NCBI GenBank assembly: GCA_027306885.1
Contig: DAHUYV010000012.1
Coordinates: 10,565 to 74,564, forward strand
Direction: 5' to 3'
DNA: 64,000 nucleotides
Source of the DNA: Candidatus Dormiibacterota bacterium
Lineage (GTDB): Bacteria; Chloroflexota; Dormibacteria; Aeolococcales; Bog-877
The number at the start of each line of letters is the position of its first letter. Positions within the stretch are counted from its first letter, which is position 1. This document shows positions 13,856-29,826 of this stretch, piece after piece. The notes under the pieces were generated by a model. It was not told where the DNA came from, searched no databases, and saw nothing but the letters and a program-made list of their open reading frames with translations. A program made the translations under genes and the position numbers.

Positions 13856-14581
13856 ATGCCCCGGACCCCCAAGAAGCCCGCGAGTCGGCGCGCCGCAACG
13901 CGCACCGGAACTCGCACCACTTCGCGCACCCCGCGAAGGACCAGTGCGCACGCCACCACGCCGCGCCGAGCTGGCGCGGTGCGCCGCACCACCCGGACCC
14001 CAGTCGCGAGCATGACCCCCGCCGCGCTCAACCGCGCGCTCACCACCCAGCTCAAGGTGTTGGAGCGGCGGCTGGCGGACATCGAGCGCAAGCTTGACGC
14101 CGCCATCACTCGCGAGCGCGCCACCACCCGCCCGGTGAGCGCCGCACGCGGCACCCGGACGCGGGCCGTCGGGGCGCGCGCCACCACCCGCCGCACCACC
14201 ACCGGGCGCGCTGCCGCCCCGCGGACCACGCGGCGGAGTACCACCACCAGAGGTGCGGGCCGGAGCGCCGCTCCCACCGCCACCCGCCGCGTCGCCGCGG
14301 GCCGGACTCCCCGCGCGGCCGCCGGAACCGGCCGCAGCGCAGCGGCGAGCCCGCGACGCACCACCGCGCGCACCGCTGCCCCGCGCACCACAACCCCGCG
14401 TGCGTCGCGCACCACAACCCCACGTACGCCGCGCACCACAGCCCGCACCCCGAGGGTGGCGGCCAGCCCCCGAACCGCGCCGCGCCGCGCCGCGAGCGCT
14501 GCGGCTCCGCCCGTCAAGAAGCCGGCCCGGCGGAAGGGACGCATCACCCTCGCCGGCGGATCCGCCCCCTCGGCCTCCTAG
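13856..14581 (+). CDS. Extremely basic Arg/Thr/Pro-repeat low-complexity protein with central coiled coil (histone/Hlp-like candidate)
   Basis: Strong SD (GGGAGG) 7 nt upstream of the ATG; 239-nt upstream intergenic region; repeated RTTTPR/TPRTT motifs; coiled-coil LKVLERRLADIERKLDAAI; followed by a perfect hairpin terminator; antisense ORF 13834..14547 is a mirror artifact. Confidence 0.5.
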   Translation: MPRTPKKPASRRAATRTGTRTTSRTPRRTSAHATTPRRAGAVRRTTRTPVASMTPAALNRALTTQLKVLERRLADIERKLDAAITRERATTRPVSAARGTRTRAVGARATTRRTTTGRAAAPRTTRRSTTTRGAGRSAAPTATRRVAAGRTPRAAAGTGRSAAASPRRTTARTAAPRTTTPRASRTTTPRTPRTTARTPRVAASPRTAPRRAASAAAPPVKKPARRKGRITLAGGSAPSAS

Positions 14582-15707: not shown

Positions 15708-17828
15708 TCAGCTGCGGGCGGAGGGCTCCGGCGCGCCGACATCGAGGAACTCGACCCGGTCGCGGCCGCCGCGCTTGGCGGCATAGAGCGCCCGGTCCGC
15801 CAGGTCGAGCAGGTTGCGGGCGCCGCGGGAGCCCTCGGGAAAGGTCACACCGCCGACGCTGACGGTCACCTGGAGGTGGTCGCCGTCCGGCAGCTGGACG
15901 ATGTGCTGGGCGGCGGCGGCGCGGATCTTCTCGGCCACCAGCTGCGCGTCGTCGCGCCCGGTGTTGGCCATCACCACCACGAATTCCTCGCCGCCGTACC
16001 GGGCCGCGAGGTCGGACTTGCGGATGGTCTCGATCAGCAGCGAGGCGAAGGCGCGCAGCACCTGGTCCCCCGCCTGGTGACCGTGGGTGTCGTTCACCCG
16101 CTTGAAATGGTCGAGGTCCAGCATCAGGACCGAGAGCGAGGAGCCCGCCCGATCCGCCACATTCACCTGCTGGTCCAGGTAGCCGATGAGGAATCGGTAG
16201 TTGTAGAGCCCGGTCATCGCGTCCGTCGTGGCCTCCCGCTGGGTGGCCGCCAGCCGCGCGCTCTTCTCCACCGCCACCACCACCTGGCTGGCCACCCCCT
16301 CGCACAGCGCGCTGTCCTCCTCCAGGTAGGGGCGGTGCTTGTTGGCGAGGATCAGGATTCCGAGGTCGCGCCCCTCCGAGCGCAGGGGCTCGGCGAGGCA
16401 GTCTCTGATTTCGAGCCGGCGCTCCAGGGCACCGCGCTCCGAGGGCGCCAAGAGGGAGCGGGCCACGAACCGCGGCTCGCGGAGCAACCGCGAGACCAGC
16501 CCGTCGCCGGCCTCCAGCTCCGACCACTCCAGTGGGGGTCCGGGAATCTCGGTGGTGATGAGGTACCCGGGGCCGGTCGCCGCCTGCGGCCGCACCAGGA
16601 TCATCGCCATCTGCACCTCCAGGAGGTCGCGAAGGCTGTTCAGCACCTGCCCCAGGGCCTGCTCCAGCGGAACCTTGCTGCCGATGGTGGCGGAGATCAC
16701 GCTGCGCCCGGTCGCCATCAGCAGCTGCCGGTGCAGCTGTCGCCGCATCAGCTCGAAGTTCGCCGACAGGCGCGTCACCTCCTCGGCCCCGGTGATGTCG
16801 ATCGGGGTGGAGTAGCCGTCCTGTCCCAGGCTCTGGACCGCCTGATTCAGCCGTCTCAGCGGGCGGTTGAGATAGTGCTCGGCGAGCAGGAACACCAGCA
16901 GCATCCCCACCAGCAGGATGGCGGCGACGGCCAGGGCCAGGGGAGCCGCCAGCTCGCCTGCGGTCGGCCCGATGGGCGCCGTGGGCTGGACCGCCACCAG
17001 CTCGGCCACCGTCTCCCCGCTGGCCGAGACGAGGGGAACGCCAGCGGCGGCGTACCGGTCGCCCCTGAGGGTGAGCAGCCCACGCTGCCCGGACCCGGCG
17101 AGCACGGCGGCAAGGGCCTCCGGCAGGCGGGACCCAATCGGTTGCCGGCGCCCCGCCACCAGCGCCGGCAGGAGCACCACCCCGTGCGACTCCAGGATCA
17201 GCTGGGCAGAGGGCTCAGCCGCTCCCACCAGCCGGCGGGCGAACTCCAGGGACGAGGTGGTCACCGGGCTCAGCACCACGATCGTCCCCAGCCTCCGGGA
17301 GCCGCTGGAGACGGGAGCCGCGCCGATGCCGAGGACCTCCGACCCCGCCGGCCGCCAGAAGGCTCCGGGGACGCTCGCGGACCCGCACCTGGCCTCTGGG
17401 ACCGCCGCCGGCAGGGAGGCCAGCTGGGCGGCGCTCAGCGCCGTTGGCGCCTGGGCCAGCACCGCCCCCGAGACGGACAGGATCAGCACCCGGTCGCCGG
17501 GCGCAGCGGTGGCGTAGGTGCGCACGAGGGTGGCAAGGTCTGACGTGGGAGCCGCCAGCGCCTGCTCGCTGGAGGTGAGACGGGCGAGCTGGCAGGCGTA
17601 CCCGGCGCTGGAGCCGAAGGTGTCGAGCTCCAGCAGGCGGGTGGCCAGGTGGGCGGTCCCCGCCCCGTCCGCGACCAGCTGGCGTGAGCTGGCGCTGCCG
17701 GTCTCATACCACGCCACCGCCCCGGCCGCCAGCGCCGTCGCCAGGCCCACCCCGAGGAGGATCAGGGCGAAGCGGGCGGTGAACGAGGCGCTCCGCGGGC
17801 GGCGCTTGCCCCTGGAATGGTTGGCCAA
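15708..17828 (-). CDS. Membrane sensor diguanylate cyclase (TM - periplasmic sensor - TM - HAMP - GAF - GGDEF)
   Basis: C-terminal GGDEF domain with active GGEEF and an RKSD I-site 5 residues upstream; GAF-like region; two TM helices flanking a ~300-aa extracytoplasmic region; start uncertain (TTG at 17828 chosen; the track ORF extends to 18203). Confidence 0.75.
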   Translation of the reverse strand: MANHSRGKRRPRSASFTARFALILLGVGLATALAAGAVAWYETGSASSRQLVADGAGTAHLATRLLELDTFGSSAGYACQLARLTSSEQALAAPTSDLATLVRTYATAAPGDRVLILSVSGAVLAQAPTALSAAQLASLPAAVPEARCGSASVPGAFWRPAGSEVLGIGAAPVSSGSRRLGTIVVLSPVTTSSLEFARRLVGAAEPSAQLILESHGVVLLPALVAGRRQPIGSRLPEALAAVLAGSGQRGLLTLRGDRYAAAGVPLVSASGETVAELVAVQPTAPIGPTAGELAAPLALAVAAILLVGMLLVFLLAEHYLNRPLRRLNQAVQSLGQDGYSTPIDITGAEEVTRLSANFELMRRQLHRQLLMATGRSVISATIGSKVPLEQALGQVLNSLRDLLEVQMAMILVRPQAATGPGYLITTEIPGPPLEWSELEAGDGLVSRLLREPRFVARSLLAPSERGALERRLEIRDCLAEPLRSEGRDLGILILANKHRPYLEEDSALCEGVASQVVVAVEKSARLAATQREATTDAMTGLYNYRFLIGYLDQQVNVADRAGSSLSVLMLDLDHFKRVNDTHGHQAGDQVLRAFASLLIETIRKSDLAARYGGEEFVVVMANTGRDDAQLVAEKIRAAAAQHIVQLPDGDHLQVTVSVGGVTFPEGSRGARNLLDLADRALYAAKRGGRDRVEFLDVGAPEPSARS

Positions 17829-18036
17829 CTTTGCTTTCCAAGATCCCCTGGCGGGCCGGCGACGGAGTCGCGGCCCCCGGTCGCGGCGGGAGGGCCGACT
17901 CCGACTGCCCGCCCCCCTATGATTTCCCACCGTAGCCAGCCATGGATCGGAGCGGGCGCGCTTGGGGTAGCGATGGGGTGACACCGGCCACACTTTCCGA
18001 TGACACGGCCGGAACGGCGTACCCGGGGAGAGCGAC

Positions 18037-18609
18037 GTGCCCGATGTGATCCTGGCGTTTCTGGACGGCGAGCTCATGTATGGCTCGATACCGGCGCTCC
18101 AGATGGACGATCCCTTCTTGGAGGTGGAGCTGCACGGGCTGGACGGCAACAACCGCCAGGCGCTGGTCCCGGCCGTCTCCCTGCGCCAGATCGACCAGGC
18201 CACCGTGCCCCCGGTGCCCGTCGACGTCGACCTGGAGACGTTGCCGCGGGTGGCCCTCCACTTTCAGGATGGCCAGGTCTTCCGGGCCCACGTGATCACC
18301 CCGGCGTCGCTGCAGCGCTACGGCGCCGTCTGGGACGTCATCGAGGCGGGGACCCGCGAGCACCGGACCTTCGCCATCCCCTACACCGCACTCAAGGCCG
18401 CGTTCTACGTGCGGCACTGGGACACCCGCCGCCCCGCGGATCGAATCGCGGGGGACTCGAGGGACCGGGAGCGAACCCGTCTGGCGGAGATCCTGGCCCG
18501 GCGCAGCCGGTCGCCAGTCACCGAGCAGGTCGACCGCCGCTCCGGGCTCCTCGCCCGGCTCGAGGCCGAGGGCGAGTCGCCGCCGGCCGCCGAGAGCCCG
18601 AGGGGGTGA
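18037..18609 (+). CDS. Hypothetical protein with internal tandem duplication (two ~70-aa hxLxFxDGxxhxG modules) and Arg-rich C-terminus
   Basis: GTG start with a GGGGAGAG SD 5 nt upstream; modules VILAFLDGELMYGSI... and VALHFQDGQVFRAHVI...; divergent from the diguanylate cyclase gene. Confidence 0.5.
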   Translation: MPDVILAFLDGELMYGSIPALQMDDPFLEVELHGLDGNNRQALVPAVSLRQIDQATVPPVPVDVDLETLPRVALHFQDGQVFRAHVITPASLQRYGAVWDVIEAGTREHRTFAIPYTALKAAFYVRHWDTRRPADRIAGDSRDRERTRLAEILARRSRSPVTEQVDRRSGLLARLEAEGESPPAAESPRG

Positions 18610-18630
18610 GCCGGCCCGGGGCCGGGCGGG

Positions 18631-18927
18631 CTACTTGAACCGGAAGGTGATCCGCCCTCTCGTCAGGTCGTAGGGGCTCAGCTCCACCTTGACCTTGTCG
18701 CCGATCAGGGTGCGGATGTAGTGCTTGCGCATCTTGCCGGAGATGTAGGCGAGGACCGTCTGGCCGGTCTGGAGCTGCACCTTGAAGACGGCGTTGGGCA
18801 GCGGCTCGACCACCGTGCCCTCGAGCTCGATGGTCTCCTCCTTGCGCTCCTCAACCGGCGTGACCCGAGAGACCCGGGGCCGGCCGGGGCCGCGGCGGGG
18901 GCGAGATCCCATCGAACGTCGTGCCAA
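18631..18927 (-). CDS. infA: Translation initiation factor IF-1 with ~25-aa Arg-rich N-terminal extension
   Basis: S1-like core [21 protein letters not shown]...[37 protein letters not shown]; TTG start with a GGAGGTG SD. Confidence 0.85.
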
Positions 18928-20037: not shown

Positions 20038-21174
20038 TCAATCGTCGATGTGCGGCATCCACGACTCCGCGTATTCCACGATCTCGCAGGTCGTGGCCGC
20101 CTCCAGCGGGCGGAGCGGTCGCAGCGCGTCGATCATGACGGCCACCTCGTCGTGGTGAGTCTTGGTGCCCTGCCGGTCGCGCTCGATCGCCTTGGGCTGG
20201 GGGCCGTGGTGGATGCCCTGGGCATGCCAGGTCATCATCCCGGCATCGATGCCGGCCCGGCTCATGAACGTGCCGGCGTGGTAGAAGAGCACCTCGTCGT
20301 AGTCGATGTTGCGGTGATAGAAGGGCAGACGCACCGCTCCCGGGTCATCGATACCCTCCACCGCCCGGGGGGCGAAGGTGCAGAGGACGAATCCCGAGGT
20401 CTTGAGGGTCGTGTGCACCGAGGGGGGGAGATGGAAGCGCCCTGAGGTCACCGGCCGGATGTCGCGCACGTTCAGGGCGAAGGCCGAAAGGTCCCCCTTC
20501 CACCCCACCGTGTCCAGCGGGTCGAAGGGGTAGAAGACCCTGGTCCACTGCCCCTCCCGCTCGATCACCATCTCCCACTCGGAATCGGCATTGGCGGGGG
20601 TGCCGGGCAGGGGCAGCTCGGGAAGGCGCAGAACCGCCCGGTCGAATGGTGAGTGCTGGCCCATCCGGTCGGCGGAGGGAAGGGTCGGCATCTCGGCCGA
20701 GGCGATCACCAGCAGGAAGCTCTCCTCCCCCTCGGGGAAGAGGCGGTGGGTGGTGCCCCGGGGCAGGACCAGGTAGTCGCCCTGCTCGTAGGCGAGGACA
20801 CCGAAGTCGGTGAGGATCGTGCCCCGGCCCCGATGCACGAAGTAGATGAGGTCGGAGTCGGCGTTGCGGTAGCAGTAGGGCATCGCCGACCGCCGCCGGG
20901 AGACGCTGATGCGCACGTCCTGATTTCCCAGCACCGGAGTCACCGCCGCCGCCGGGTCGTCGGCGTCGGGGGCCTCGGCCCGCCGCAGGTCGTAGGCGCG
21001 CGGCCGGAGCGGGCCCTCGATCCGAGTCCACTCGGTCGGGGCGTGAGCGTGATAGAGGTGCGAGGCGGGGCCGAAGAAGCCCTGGCGCGCGAACTCCTCC
21101 TCGATCGTGCCCTCGGGCAGATCGCAGTGGGCCTGCCGGCTGAAACGCCCTCGGGATTGAGGGAACATCACCAA
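20038..21174 (-). CDS. hmgA: Homogentisate 1,2-dioxygenase
   Basis: Cupin-type HGD motifs (YCYRNADSDLIYFVHRGRG, LPFYHRNIDYDEVLFYH); 10 nt upstream of the FAH gene. Confidence 0.85.
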   Translation of the reverse strand: MVMFPQSRGRFSRQAHCDLPEGTIEEEFARQGFFGPASHLYHAHAPTEWTRIEGPLRPRAYDLRRAEAPDADDPAAAVTPVLGNQDVRISVSRRRSAMPYCYRNADSDLIYFVHRGRGTILTDFGVLAYEQGDYLVLPRGTTHRLFPEGEESFLLVIASAEMPTLPSADRMGQHSPFDRAVLRLPELPLPGTPANADSEWEMVIEREGQWTRVFYPFDPLDTVGWKGDLSAFALNVRDIRPVTSGRFHLPPSVHTTLKTSGFVLCTFAPRAVEGIDDPGAVRLPFYHRNIDYDEVLFYHAGTFMSRAGIDAGMMTWHAQGIHHGPQPKAIERDRQGTKTHHDEVAVMIDALRPLRPLEAATTCEIVEYAESWMPHIDD

Positions 21175-25839: not shown

Positions 25840-26763
25840 TCAGCGCTTCTGGAGCCGCACCTCAAGGGCATCTCGAAGGGCATCGCCAACAAAGTTGAAG
25901 GCGACGACGGTCAGCACGATGGCCACCCCCGCCGGGTAGATGAGCCACCAGTAGCCGGCGTACACGTAGCTGAGCCCGTTGCTCAGCTCCCCGCCCCAGT
26001 TGGTCGCCGGCGGGGGCACTCCGATGCCCAGGTAGCTCAGGGTGGCCACGGCGATGATCGCGTCGGCCACCTGGAAGGTGGCATTGACCACGATCACCCC
26101 GACGGTGTTGGGAATGATGTGGCGGAAGAGGACCCGGCGGGTGCTCCCGCCCATGACCCGGACCGCCTGGACATACTCGCGCACCCGCAGGCTGAGGGTC
26201 TCGCCGCGGACCAACCGGGCTGGGACCAGCCAGGCGACCAGGCCGATGACGATGATCAGCTCCAGGGTCGAGGTTGTGAAGATCGCCCCGAGCAGGATGA
26301 GGGCGACGAGGAAGGGGATCGCCAGAAGGGCGTCGACGATCCTCATCATGACGGTGTCGACGATGCCGCCGGCCAGCCCGGAGACGGCGCCCCAGATCAC
26401 CCCGACGAAGACCGCGATGATCGCGGCGGCGAAGCCCACCTCAAGCGAGCTCTGCCCCCCCAGCATGAGGCGGCCCAGGTTGTCGTAGCCGACCTGATCG
26501 GTGCCCAGGGGATGGGCCAGGCTGGGCCCCAGATGGGCGATGCCGGGGTTGTTGAAGACCTGCTGGGTGCGGTAGATGAAGGGACCGATGAAGCTGAAGA
26601 GGAGCATGAAGACGATGATCCCGAGGCCCACGATCGCCAGCCGGTTCTCGATGAAGACGGCCAGGATCAGCCGCCACATCGACCCCGACCGGTAGCCCTC
26701 CCCTCCTTCGGGAATCGCATCGGACCCCAGCGGCAGGCCGGCGACGGGTTGCGCAGTGCTCAT
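25840..26763 (-). CDS. Peptide ABC transporter permease (OppC/DppC type)
   Basis: 6 TM helices, BPD_transp_1 EAA-like loop. Confidence 0.85.
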   Translation of the reverse strand: MSTAQPVAGLPLGSDAIPEGGEGYRSGSMWRLILAVFIENRLAIVGLGIIVFMLLFSFIGPFIYRTQQVFNNPGIAHLGPSLAHPLGTDQVGYDNLGRLMLGGQSSLEVGFAAAIIAVFVGVIWGAVSGLAGGIVDTVMMRIVDALLAIPFLVALILLGAIFTTSTLELIIVIGLVAWLVPARLVRGETLSLRVREYVQAVRVMGGSTRRVLFRHIIPNTVGVIVVNATFQVADAIIAVATLSYLGIGVPPPATNWGGELSNGLSYVYAGYWWLIYPAGVAIVLTVVAFNFVGDALRDALEVRLQKR

Positions 26764-26811
26764 CCTTCTCCCTCGCGCAGGTGGATTCGAGCTCCTCCCT
26801 GCCCACTTCGC

Positions 26812-27753
26812 CTACACATACCTGATCCTCGGGTCGGCAACCGCGTAGAGGATGTCAGCGAGCAGGTTGCCCAGCACGGTCGCGAGGGCCACGACCACGA
26901 CGAAACCCAGAAGCGTCGGGAAGTCGTCGGTTACTGCCGCGTTGTAGTACAGGAGGCCCATGCCCGGGTAGTTGAAGACGCTCTCGGTGACCACCGCCCC
27001 GCCGACGATGCCACCGATTGAGAGCCCGATGAGCGTGATCACCGGGATGAGCGCGTTGCGCAGCACGTGGACCAGCAGCACCGCCTGATTGGAGACGCCC
27101 TTGGCGCGAGCGGTGCGGACGTAGTCCTGGATGGACTGCTCCAGCATCGAGGAGCGCATGTAGCGGCTGAACAGGGCGACGGTGACCGCGGTGAGGGTCA
27201 CCACCGGCAGCACCATCCCGTTGAGGTCGGTCCAGGGATAGGTCTGGTTCTGCGGCGCCTCGAAGGGCAGCCAGTTCAAGGTCTGGTTGAAGACGATGAT
27301 CAGCAGGATGCCCAGAAGGAAGGTGGGCATGGAGTAGAAGATGAAGCTCATCCCGGTGAGGACGTAGTCGTCCGGGCGGTTGCGGCGCACCGCCTGCCAG
27401 ATGCCCAGCGGCACCGCCAGGATCACCGCCAGCACGAGAGACGAGCCGACCAGGAACAGGGTCTTGGGCAGTCGCTGCCCGATCAGCGCCATCACCGGCT
27501 GGTTGAGCTTGTAGGAGAACCCGAGATTCAGGTGTACAAGGTTCCACACCCAGATGCCGTACTGGACGTAGAGCGGCTTGTTGAAGCCCAGCTCCTCGTT
27601 CAGCTGCTTGATGGCGGCGGCGCTGGCCCGGGGGCCGAGAATGGCCCGCACCGGGCTGCCTGGCAGGAGATGGAGCAGGATGAAGGTGATGATCGTCACG
27701 CCGATCAGGACGACGATGGCCTGACCGACTCGCCGGATCAAGTATCCGATCAC
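26812..27753 (-). CDS. Peptide ABC transporter permease (OppB/DppB type)
   Basis: MIGYLIRRVGQAIVVLIGVTIITF N-terminus typical of OppB/DppB. Confidence 0.85.
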   Translation of the reverse strand: MIGYLIRRVGQAIVVLIGVTIITFILLHLLPGSPVRAILGPRASAAAIKQLNEELGFNKPLYVQYGIWVWNLVHLNLGFSYKLNQPVMALIGQRLPKTLFLVGSSLVLAVILAVPLGIWQAVRRNRPDDYVLTGMSFIFYSMPTFLLGILLIIVFNQTLNWLPFEAPQNQTYPWTDLNGMVLPVVTLTAVTVALFSRYMRSSMLEQSIQDYVRTARAKGVSNQAVLLVHVLRNALIPVITLIGLSIGGIVGGAVVTESVFNYPGMGLLYYNAAVTDDFPTLLGFVVVVALATVLGNLLADILYAVADPRIRYV

Positions 27754-27796
27754 ATTCGTCTAGCTCCCTACCCCGTCGTTGATGGCCGGTCGAGCG

Positions 27797-27828
27797 GCCC
27801 CATGGGGCCCGGCCTTGCGGCCGGGCCC
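27797..27828 (-). promoter_or_regulatory. Tandem stem-loops in the SBP-permease intergenic region (candidate intra-operon attenuator)
   Basis: GGCCCCATGGGGCC (perfect 14-nt palindrome) overlapping GGCCCGGCC-TTGC-GGCCGGGCC (9-bp stem) inside the 129-nt gap between the SBP and the first permease gene. Confidence 0.4.
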
Positions 27829-27882
27829 CACCGCCGACCCCGGTTGGGGCCCGCGGCTGGTGCCGTCGATCCTTAACTCAGA

Positions 27883-29826
27883 TCAGGAGAACGCGTAGTA
27901 CTGCGGGTACAGCTCGTCGAAGATTCCCTGGTGCTCAAGCCCCGTGAGGTTGCTCTTGTACATGGTGAGCTGGTAGGGGGTGGTGGGCATGTAGACCACC
28001 GGCAGCTGCTTGGCGAGGTAGTCCTCGTAGGTGAACAGCGCCTTGAGCTCGGCCGTGTCGTTGGCCGCCGTGTGGGTGGCCTTGATGTTGGCGTCGTTGG
28101 TGGTATCGCTGTAGTCGCCGGCGTTGCTCGATGCGCCGGTGCCCAGGATCTCGCCTCCGGTCGGGAAGTAGTCAGGTGAGTACACCCAGCCACCGCCCCA
28201 GTTGGCCATGTCCCACCCGTTGCAGGGCGACGAGAAGGTGCAGCCGTTGAAGGCGGTGCCGATCACCTGCTGGAACGGCGCGGTCGAGAGGGTGATCTTG
28301 ATGCCGGCCACCTGCTGGGCGGTCGACTGGAGAGCTGTCATCTCGTTGGTCAGGGCGACCGATCCCTGCGCGTACAGGAGTCGGAAGTTGAGCTGCGCTC
28401 CGTTGGCGATCCCCTGGCCACACTCGTCCGACGCGGTGCCGGGCTTGGTGCAGGTGCTCACGCCGCCGGCGTTTACGGTCCAGCCGTGGGCCTTGAGAAG
28501 GCCCACTGCCTTGCTGGCGCTGTACGGGTAGACCTGGCCGCCGCCCTCAAGCGGGCTGACGTCGGGGTTGTGCAGGGGGTAGGTCGGGACGGGCCCGTTG
28601 GTGGCCACCCCATAGCCGGCCAGGAAGTCGGATATGTACTGCGGCTGGTTGACCAGCGACTGGAAGGCCTGCCGGAAGTACAGCTGCTTCATGATCGGGC
28701 CGGTCGTCGGCTCGGTGAAGTTGTACGGGAAGTAGGTGAAGCCGAAGCTGTACCACGGGTTGAAGGTGTAGCCGCTCTTCTCGAGAAGCGCCTTCTGGCT
28801 GATGTCCTGGGTCGGGATGTACCCGATGGTCAGGGAACCCGCCTTGAGGGCGTTGAACTCCGCGGTGTCGGAGGTGAACGGCTCCTCGATGAAGGCCGAG
28901 ATGGTGGGCTTGGGGCTACCGGAGTAGCTCTTGTTGGGGACCATCTTGGCGTAGCCGGCCGTGGTGTAGGCGTTCAGAACGAAGGGACCGCTGACCACCT
29001 GCCAGAGCGGGTTGGTGGCGTAGGTGCCCAGGGTCTGGGACTGGCTGTTGATGAACTGGGCCACACCCAGCGCCCCGCTGGTCCCGTTGCCCGGGTTGGT
29101 CGGCACGTACTCGGCGGGCGAGGTGTTGGGAAGGGTAGTCCTGGCCTCCGCCCCGGCGTCGTAGTTGCCGATCGGTCCACTGGCGGACAGCTCATCCCAC
29201 GCCTGCTGCGGCAGGGGGGTGATCTGGCTCAGCTCGTTGTAGAGGAACCAGCGCGGGTTGTAGGAGCTGTTCAGCGTCATGTGGAGCGAGTAGGTCCCGG
29301 TCGCCTGGTAGCTGACCACGTTCTGCGGGAACGCGCCAGGCACCGCCGCACCCCATCCGGGGCCGGGGGCGCTGCTGCTGCCGACCGCGGGCGCGTTGGG
29401 GTCAGTCGCCGCGGAGAGCAGGTTGAGCCAGAAGACCACGTCCCGGGCGGTGATCGGCTTGCCGTTCGACCACACCCAGTGCTTCAGGGTGATGCTGACC
29501 TCGGTGTTGTTGTTGGAGAAGACCGGCTGGTTGCCGATGCTCAACTGCGCATTGAACACGGGGTCCGAGGTGTTGTTCCCGAACCAGAAGAGGGGGACGT
29601 ACATCAGCTGGGAGAAGTCCGAGAGGTTGGTGACGCTGAAATAGGTCCCGCTTGCCATCGGGAAGATGTAGCTGGGCGGCGCGCTCGGCCCCTCGGCGAA
29701 GGTCACCGTGCCGCCGGTGGTGGTCTTCGGGGTGGTGGTGGTTCCCCCGCAGGCGGCCACGAAGAGGGCCGTCACCGCGGCCACCCCCGCAAGTCGCCAG
29801 AACGAGAGTTTTGGAATGTGTCTCAC
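27883..29826 (-). CDS. ABC transporter substrate-binding lipoprotein, family 5 (oligopeptide/dipeptide/nickel)
   Basis: Signal peptide with lipobox (VAACGG); ~620-aa SBP_bac_5 domain; upstream of the two permease genes. Confidence 0.85.
   Translation of the reverse strand: MRHIPKLSFWRLAGVAAVTALFVAACGGTTTTPKTTTGGTVTFAEGPSAPPSYIFPMASGTYFSVTNLSDFSQLMYVPLFWFGNNTSDPVFNAQLSIGNQPVFSNNNTEVSITLKHWVWSNGKPITARDVVFWLNLLSAATDPNAPAVGSSSAPGPGWGAAVPGAFPQNVVSYQATGTYSLHMTLNSSYNPRWFLYNELSQITPLPQQAWDELSASGPIGNYDAGAEARTTLPNTSPAEYVPTNPGNGTSGALGVAQFINSQSQTLGTYATNPLWQVVSGPFVLNAYTTAGYAKMVPNKSYSGSPKPTISAFIEEPFTSDTAEFNALKAGSLTIGYIPTQDISQKALLEKSGYTFNPWYSFGFTYFPYNFTEPTTGPIMKQLYFRQAFQSLVNQPQYISDFLAGYGVATNGPVPTYPLHNPDVSPLEGGGQVYPYSASKAVGLLKAHGWTVNAGGVSTCTKPGTASDECGQGIANGAQLNFRLLYAQGSVALTNEMTALQSTAQQVAGIKITLSTAPFQQVIGTAFNGCTFSSPCNGWDMANWGGGWVYSPDYFPTGGEILGTGASSNAGDYSDTTNDANIKATHTAANDTAELKALFTYEDYLAKQLPVVYMPTTPYQLTMYKSNLTGLEHQGIFDELYPQYYAFS

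Follow-up and report, generated by a model that had tools for sequence, protein, structure and literature searches.

A predicted tandem small-barrel protein related to DUF6982, encoded divergently from a sensor diguanylate cyclase in Dormibacterota

When a small protein of no assigned function is encoded back to back with a signalling enzyme, does the arrangement reveal what the protein does? We asked this of a divergent gene pair in a 64,000-nucleotide stretch of a Candidatus Dormiibacterota bacterium genome (contig DAHUYV010000012.1; the whole stretch is called the window below). On one side lies a predicted sensor diguanylate cyclase (15708-17822, minus strand), and on the other a gene at 18037-18609 (plus strand) for a protein of 190 aa, which we named X. 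The cyclase is routine. The interest lies in X, whose family comes without functional information and is so far confined to Dormibacterota and Chloroflexota, both poorly studied. If X bound cyclic di-GMP (c-di-GMP), it would supply an added receptor class and a signalling output for phyla that have no cultured model organisms; if it does not, the pair would be a textbook case of conserved adjacency that stems from phylum-wide synteny and not from function. On the reading we favour, to which we give about an even chance, X is a binding module of the DUF6982 superfamily that consists of tandem small barrels, has no enzymatic role and is inherited vertically, and its place beside the cyclase is an arrangement specific to Dormibacterota. 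New here are a confident fold for X, a hallmark motif, a map of how the neighbourhood changes between lineages, and a conserved intergenic element.

The X gene is real and conserved. Its GTG start has a Shine-Dalgarno-like GGGGAGAG 4-5 nt upstream (18025..18032, plus strand, from direct reading of the sequence), as the original prediction had proposed, and this start is supported because the N-termini of homologs align at M-P-E/D-V. A word-indexed search returned 52 close homologs at E < 1e-51, all of them from Dormibacterota metagenome-assembled genomes (MAGs) and, where they carry a name at all, called ‘hypothetical protein’. The alignment of these close homologs, A1, has a mean column identity of 57% with 35 invariant columns. 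Conservation in 52 or more proteins, together with the confident fold described below, rules out a spurious open reading frame (ORF). The superfamily as a whole is small, since among 1.84 billion cluster representatives, searched exhaustively with the family profile, only 85 proteins reached E <= 0.001; its named distant members are proteins of Chloroflexota MAGs. Word-indexed searches with a more diverse alignment, and with the N-terminal domain of the relative P0135, added almost nothing to this set. Hydropathy analysis found no hydrophobic or transmembrane (TM) segment in X.

The protein is built from a duplicated module followed by a C-terminal extension. As single sequences, the two halves of X align over only 13 residues, and 27 of 2000 shuffles reach the observed score. 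At the profile level, module 1 (residues 1-58) and module 2 (residues 69-131) are clearly related (hhalign 97.7%, E 1.8e-12, 54 columns) and have in common the pattern V-x-[VL]-x-F-x-D-G-E ... [IV]-P ... [VL]-[KR]-x-[VI]. An AlphaFold2 (AF2) model of the product of 18037..18609, the check suggested alongside the original prediction, was computed with A1 and contains two five-stranded small beta-barrels. Its mean predicted local distance difference test (pLDDT) score is 81, rising above 90 for most of residues 1-125. The strands of barrel 1 span residues 3-8, 13-17, 27-33, 39-45 and 49-54, and those of barrel 2 residues 71-76, 81-92, 96-103, 109-115 and 119-125. The profile alignment and the model thus agree with the earlier description of two repeated modules of about 70 aa.

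On the DNA, module 1 occupies 18037..18201 (plus strand; residues 1-55, pLDDT 86-95), delimited by the model, the profile alignment and conservation, and carries the motifs F-x-D-G-E and N-N-R-x-A-x-V-P...[RK]. Module 2 occupies 18241..18429 (plus strand; residues 69-131, pLDDT 83-97), delimited by the model, by invariant columns and by the Pfam match at residues 71-133 discussed below, and ends in the family hallmark IPY-x-x-LK-x-x-FY-x-[RK]-x-WD[ST]R. The C-terminal region (18430..18609, plus strand; residues 132-190 and the stop codon) was characterised from the model, A1 and a charge count; it comprises a helix at residues 141-158 with a conserved LAE...RR and then a disordered tail, with pLDDT below 50 beyond residue 160. 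This tail had been described as Arg-rich. The arginines are there, 13 of them by hand count, but they are accompanied by 11 Asp/Glu residues, and the tail is really of mixed charge, with a computed net charge of +2. The barrels are acidic, with a net charge of -7 in X and a family mean of -5.6.

The duplication had not been recognised as a named domain, and here the original prediction has to be corrected: X belongs with DUF6982 (PF22478). X itself matches this Pfam model at 17 bits (E 0.0063) over residues 71-133, in module 2 only, and falls below the 24.5-bit cut-off. All 52 of the 52 close homologs match it weakly as well, the best at E 5.8e-6. Four more distant proteins that the A1 profile retrieves at E 1.7e-7 to 2.2e-5 (P0109, P0117, P0121 and P0124) score above the DUF6982 cut-off, with 32.3 bits for P0117, 31.7 for P0124 and 30.9 for P0121; four others (P0093, P0122, P0138 and P0102) carry precomputed PF22478 annotations. 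Because distant relatives reached with the A1 profile pass the cut-off or carry the annotation, X is, as judged from these profiles, a divergent branch of DUF6982, a named family of unknown function of which we found no mention in the literature searched.

The two share a tandem two-module layout over about 130 residues and the motifs F-x-DGE and IP..LK..F.V..WDSR, and the halves of the 134-position DUF6982 model are matched by different proteins in shifted register. The hallmark at the end of barrel 2, IPY..LK..FY.[RK].WD[ST]R, is found superfamily-wide. What sets the Dormibacterota branch of X apart from other DUF6982 proteins is a C-terminal helix and charged tail of its own, and a neighbourhood of its own with the cyclase upstream. 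Beyond the barrels, the C-terminus differs by clade: a charged helix and tail in X, a SHOCT domain in a large soil clade, and long acidic linkers in another group. SHOCT is present in the relatives P0063, P0093 and P0138, and no SHOCT domain (PF09851) was detected in X or any of the 52 close homologs. An oligomerisation function for SHOCT was proposed in the paper that described it but was not supported by that paper's own test (PMC3581485), and we do not rely on it here. Finally, in P0135 and three fragments, together 4 of the 85 representatives, a T2SSE-type ATPase is fused C-terminal to the family module.

Some further occurrences of the family were recorded. A tandem of two DUF6982 genes, divergent from the gene for ribosomal protein L25, occurs in one Chloroflexota lineage (L008, 5480-8319; L132, 6430-8077). 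The product of the second gene is in some cases a protein of 358 aa that has a long acidic linker and in others a fusion of 772 aa with a T2SSE (CpaF/VirB11-like) ATPase, and there are no other pilus genes near these loci. In a separate locus, L014, the distance between a family member and a TadE gene is about 2 kb.

What kind of protein would such a fold make? Foldseek searches with the X model returned tandem Tudor proteins, CapW and Hfq, at E 0.008 or worse, and the matches that span two barrels, those to tandem Tudor proteins, have TM-scores of about 0.2. On the model, both modules are small barrels of a generic kind (Sm/Hfq, Tudor, SH3 or WYL type), and the tandem arrangement is not matched by any solved structure. 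No sequence-level relationship to Sm/Hfq (LSM), Tudor, SH3-like or WYL proteins was found in Pfam or among PDB sequences, and the X family profile gave no match at E <= 10 against all PDB sequences. Pfam and NCBIfam yielded no enzyme family, and PADLOC and PHROGs no match of any kind. We therefore picture X conditionally, from its fold class, as a small acidic cytoplasmic binding or adaptor protein with two duplicated barrels that would not be an enzyme. The patch formed by the hallmark at the end of barrel 2 (IPY..LK..FY.[RK].WD[ST]R) would be the likeliest interaction site in the model, and the variable C-terminal extension, whether charged helix and tail, SHOCT or T2SSE ATPase, probably links the module to different partners.

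The same comparison raises a more specific alternative, in which X is an Sm/Hfq-like or RimP-like factor whose barrels contact RNA or a ribosomal protein, with a basic tail adding affinity. The best structural matches are indeed Sm/Hfq proteins, with RimP and ribosomal protein L19 also appearing. The genomic context offers translation-related neighbours: infA, encoding IF-1, lies convergently downstream of X in every evaluated Dormibacterota-type locus of sufficient extent, as well as in the L140 lineage, and the family is divergent from the ribosomal protein L25 gene in a Chloroflexota lineage. The tail, at +2 in X, is also basic on family average, at +5.5. X matches no LSM or Hfq profile in Pfam. 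Its model shows no N-terminal helix of the kind that precedes the strands in the Sm/Hfq (LSM) fold, and, unlike Sm/Hfq and other small barrels, its barrels are acidic and covalently linked as a pair. We consider an RNA- or ribosome-directed role distinctly improbable.

The gene opposite X is, from its sequence, a standard membrane-bound sensor diguanylate cyclase, predicted to synthesise c-di-GMP. It encodes 704 aa on the minus strand (15708..17822) from a TTG at 17822, the likely start, which has GGAAAG before it and keeps its position in homologs. The longest ORF in this frame (15708-18203, minus strand, 831 aa) is purely formal, and we rejected it as the cyclase; it overlaps the start of X only since no stop codon lies upstream of the real TTG. 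The window has a G+C content of about 72%, and this high G+C gives rise to long spurious ORFs on all strands, many of them overlapping between 12300 and 22000.

Pfam places in the cyclase a HAMP domain (E 2.4e-7), a GAF domain (E 1.4e-11) and a GGDEF domain (PF00990, E 1.5e-44; 152 bits against a curated cut-off of 23.8), and NCBIfam a TIGR00254 match (E 1.2e-52; 178 bits against 37.4). By hydropathy, residues 12-39 and 286-319 are two strong TM segments, enclosing an extracytoplasmic region of about 245 aa without a Pfam match, for an overall order of TM1, sensor region, TM2, HAMP, GAF and GGDEF. The active-site motif, GGEEF, occupies residues 610-614, with RKSD exactly five residues upstream (RKSD-LAARY-GGEEF, read as ETIRKSDLAARYGGEEFVVV), and both active site and I-site appear intact. 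In architecture and catalytic motifs alike, the cyclase is as originally described. Its closest homologs, like those of X, are found in Candidatus Dormibacterota MAGs. A tblastn search of the window revealed no second GGDEF gene, no T2SSE ATPase and no paralog of X.

Given a plausible source of c-di-GMP next door, is X its receptor or effector? Like the PilZ-type receptors with two barrels (YcgR/PlzA-like), X is a small, apparently cytoplasmic protein of two beta-barrels, and its gene adjoins a diguanylate cyclase; by analogy, a role for X as a c-di-GMP output is conceivable. Yet Pfam gives no PilZ match in X at E up to 1, the RxxxR and [DN]xSxxG motifs of PilZ cannot be read in the inter-barrel linker or in barrel 2, and no other c-di-GMP receptor profile in Pfam matches X. 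A precedent for binding by a different barrel comes from the WYL domain of MbpR, an Sm-like SH3 barrel that binds c-di-GMP with a dissociation constant (KD) of 0.22 uM (PMC11880434), and thus a small barrel without PilZ motifs can bind this messenger. The likeness of that domain to X extends only to the general fold class: MbpR is a transcription factor that joins a helix-turn-helix (HTH) to its WYL domain, whereas X has no HTH and no WYL profile match in Pfam at E up to 1.

If X nevertheless acted as a new receptor or effector of c-di-GMP, or partnered the adjacent cyclase directly, the nucleotide might bind the tandem barrels, for example at the conserved Tyr/Lys/Trp/Arg patch, and alter the action of X through its tail. 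In support, WYL proteins, the class to which the MbpR precedent belongs, are among the fold matches of X. Rare relatives carry the family module N-terminal to a T2SSE ATPase, and it is the c-di-GMP-binding MshEN domain that holds the N-terminal position in other such ATPases. The hallmark residues, for their part, are equally conserved in clades without a nearby cyclase and so are not specific to the pairing; the missing PilZ and WYL matches in Pfam, and the missing PilZ motifs, also count against the idea.

In Dormibacterota-type loci the pairing is constant. The cyclase lies directly upstream of and divergent from X in 36 of the 36 species-representative loci with enough upstream sequence, and an exact protein look-up recovered loci with the same pair (L001-L004, L010/L011 and L137-139). 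The adjacency, in other words, is found in every Dormibacterota-type locus that could be assessed, including those in which X has diverged to 37-48% identity, and a conserved intergenic element common to both genes accompanies it; both facts speak for a receptor and its cyclase. But the pair is no better conserved than the block around it. About ten genes are equally syntenic in these loci: a response regulator, glutamate dehydrogenase, a basic protein, a threonine-aldolase-like lyase, the cyclase and X, followed by IF-1, an FAA hydrolase, an HgmA-like protein and an alcohol dehydrogenase. Because the whole block is equally conserved, the cyclase-X pair weighs no more than the other adjacencies within it.

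Outside the block the upstream neighbour of X changes, which speaks against a dedicated link to the cyclase. The nearest relatives, P0059 (L140-142) and P0056 (L012), have no cyclase, and these lineages keep X with its other neighbours. In L140, the gene for a basic coiled-coil protein (AKR-rich) and then a terminator come before X, and downstream of X lie LPG_synthase_TM, an NAD-dependent epimerase and convergent infA. The basic AKR-repeat protein lies directly upstream of X in both cyclase-less L140 (6336-6902) and L012. The NAD-dependent epimerase/dehydratase gene occurs in both arrangements: in 22 of 39 Dormibacterota-type loci it is the gene right after X (L001, 6612-7562; L010, 3368-4366; L137, 7555-8490), and it overlaps the X stop codon where gene calls existed (L001, L010 and L137), and has an ortholog (56-64% identity) at 8692-9618 in L140. 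In the clade of the window it has been lost from between X and infA, and no copy was detected in the 64 kb. On the simplest reading, genes that adjoin each other in the sister lineage are parted here by the lyase-cyclase pair. The window has a basic protein comparable to the AKR-repeat protein, 241 aa encoded at 13856-14581 (plus strand), which is extremely rich in Arg, Thr, Ala and Pro, with a short central stretch resembling a coiled coil and no Pfam match. A basic protein of this sort may be the more ancient neighbour of X, and the acidic barrels of X could in principle bind it.

Further out, the large soil clade with SHOCT shows another arrangement. A GGDEF gene occurs in 0 of 80 metagenome loci, with up to 6 kb surveyed where the contigs allowed, and a divergent extracytoplasmic function (ECF) sigma factor gene is found in 61 of 61 loci with enough upstream sequence. 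The product of this sigma gene (L052-L131; for example L006, 1828-2700, minus strand) is about 290 aa long, and its HxxxCxxC (ZAS-like) motif suggests a sigma factor fused to an anti-sigma factor. Of 54 loci of this clade, 44 have SBP_bac_5 after X.

Since the upstream neighbour of X changes with lineage, the cyclase adjacency is a lineage-specific arrangement and does not define the family. The expectation that the pairing would be conserved across genomes therefore held in every Dormibacterota-type locus that could be assessed and failed in L140-142, in L012 and in the SHOCT clade. The proposal that X is an effector or partner of the cyclase fares similarly, with a real adjacency, which is what points to a possible effector role, and neither a PilZ match or motif nor a relative of solved structure to go with it. 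We regard X as a c-di-GMP receptor or direct cyclase partner as unlikely, though with a real chance of being right. A broader version, in which the tandem barrels of DUF6982 would be a new receptor class for c-di-GMP or another nucleotide second messenger, serving as the dedicated output of the adjacent cyclase in Dormibacterota and elsewhere coupled to an ECF sigma factor or joined in one protein with a secretion-type ATPase, seems to us less probable still.

The alternative that we prefer, a family-wide binding module with lineage-specific neighbours, would have the X gene passed vertically while its upstream neighbour came to be the cyclase in Dormibacterota, the ECF sigma factor in a Chloroflexota clade and the basic coiled-coil protein in the nearest cyclase-less lineages. 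Three points weigh against it. The adjacency of cyclase and X persists where X identity is only 37-48% (L010, L137-139), which might mean that selection, beyond mere inertia, keeps the pair together; the ATPase fusion is rare, three of its four instances among the 85 representatives being fragments; and the adaptor role itself is suggested by fold class and architecture only.

The control region between the two divergent genes, about 215 bp long, holds the conserved element. Alignment of the window with 27 homologous intergenic regions revealed two blocks: block A, CCTATGATTTCCCACCGTAGCC, at 17916..17937, and block B, GGTAGCGATGGGGTGACACCGGCCACACTTTCCGATGAC, at 17966..18004, which is separated from the downstream X start codon by 32 nt (by about 32-70 nt in homologs). 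Across Dormibacterota block A reads CCTATGAT..CCCACCGTAGCC and block B GGTAGCGAtGGgGTGACaCCGgCC..AC.tTCC.ATGAC. Block A contains two hexamers that resemble -10 boxes, TATGAT on the plus strand and ACCGTA, which reads TACGGT on the minus strand, and its CACCGTA is invariant in 23 sequences. Over the element of about 90 nt, mean column identity is 77% with 29 of 90 columns invariant, about as conserved as coding sequence, and the DNA flanking the blocks is not alignable. Block B is unique within the window. In deep branches both blocks are degenerate, and loci without the cyclase lack them.

Two explanations for the element were examined and set aside. A structured RNA fits poorly: RNAalifold finds in the conserved block only 7 pairs at -4.2 kcal/mol, one of them covarying, and single-sequence folds show no common architecture. 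A small ORF or an N-terminal extension of X is contradicted by mismatched frames and by spacing differences that are not multiples of three. Rfam gave no match in the whole window at gathering thresholds or in the intergenic region at E <= 10, and thus no riboswitch, one for c-di-GMP included, and a consensus scan of 17700-18700 for sigma-70 promoters and terminators found nothing. The two blocks may represent a shared promoter, an operator or a 5'-untranslated region (5'-UTR) element, and because so strongly conserved an element is common to both genes, cyclase and X are probably co-regulated in Dormibacterota.

The element could also be the target of X. A divergent layout is the classic arrangement of a regulator and its target, and X might be an autoregulatory protein that binds DNA or the 5'-UTR, with an operator at 17916-18004 from which it would control the cyclase and its own gene. 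An element about as conserved as coding sequence and unique in the window would suit such a site, and in two separate clades the family is divergent from a signalling gene across 255-330 bp. The protein itself fits less well, having an acidic core and no recognisable DNA-binding motif, and no operator-type inverted repeat was seen in the element. The element is moreover absent upstream of X in cyclase-less lineages and therefore may belong to the cyclase promoter, unrelated to X. Autoregulation by X strikes us as very improbable.

A few observations on the surrounding sequence remain. Three loci titled Nanopelagicaceae, Acidiferrales and ‘Micrarchaeaceae archaeon’ (L025, L035 and L039) are fully syntenic with the Dormibacterota block, with X identities of 54-61%, and their taxonomic labels are probably wrong. 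The gene at 20038-21174 (minus strand) of the window is annotated by similarity as a homogentisate 1,2-dioxygenase, with HgmA_N (E 3e-5) and HgmA_C (E 2.5e-4) matches barely above their cut-offs and a cupin match below its own; the gene adjoins the FAA hydrolase gene, and its product may be a divergent ring-cleavage dioxygenase. Between about 26000 and 30000, G+C falls to about 0.655 from about 0.72 elsewhere in the window, in a segment that spans oligopeptide ABC permease and substrate-binding genes (25840-29826).

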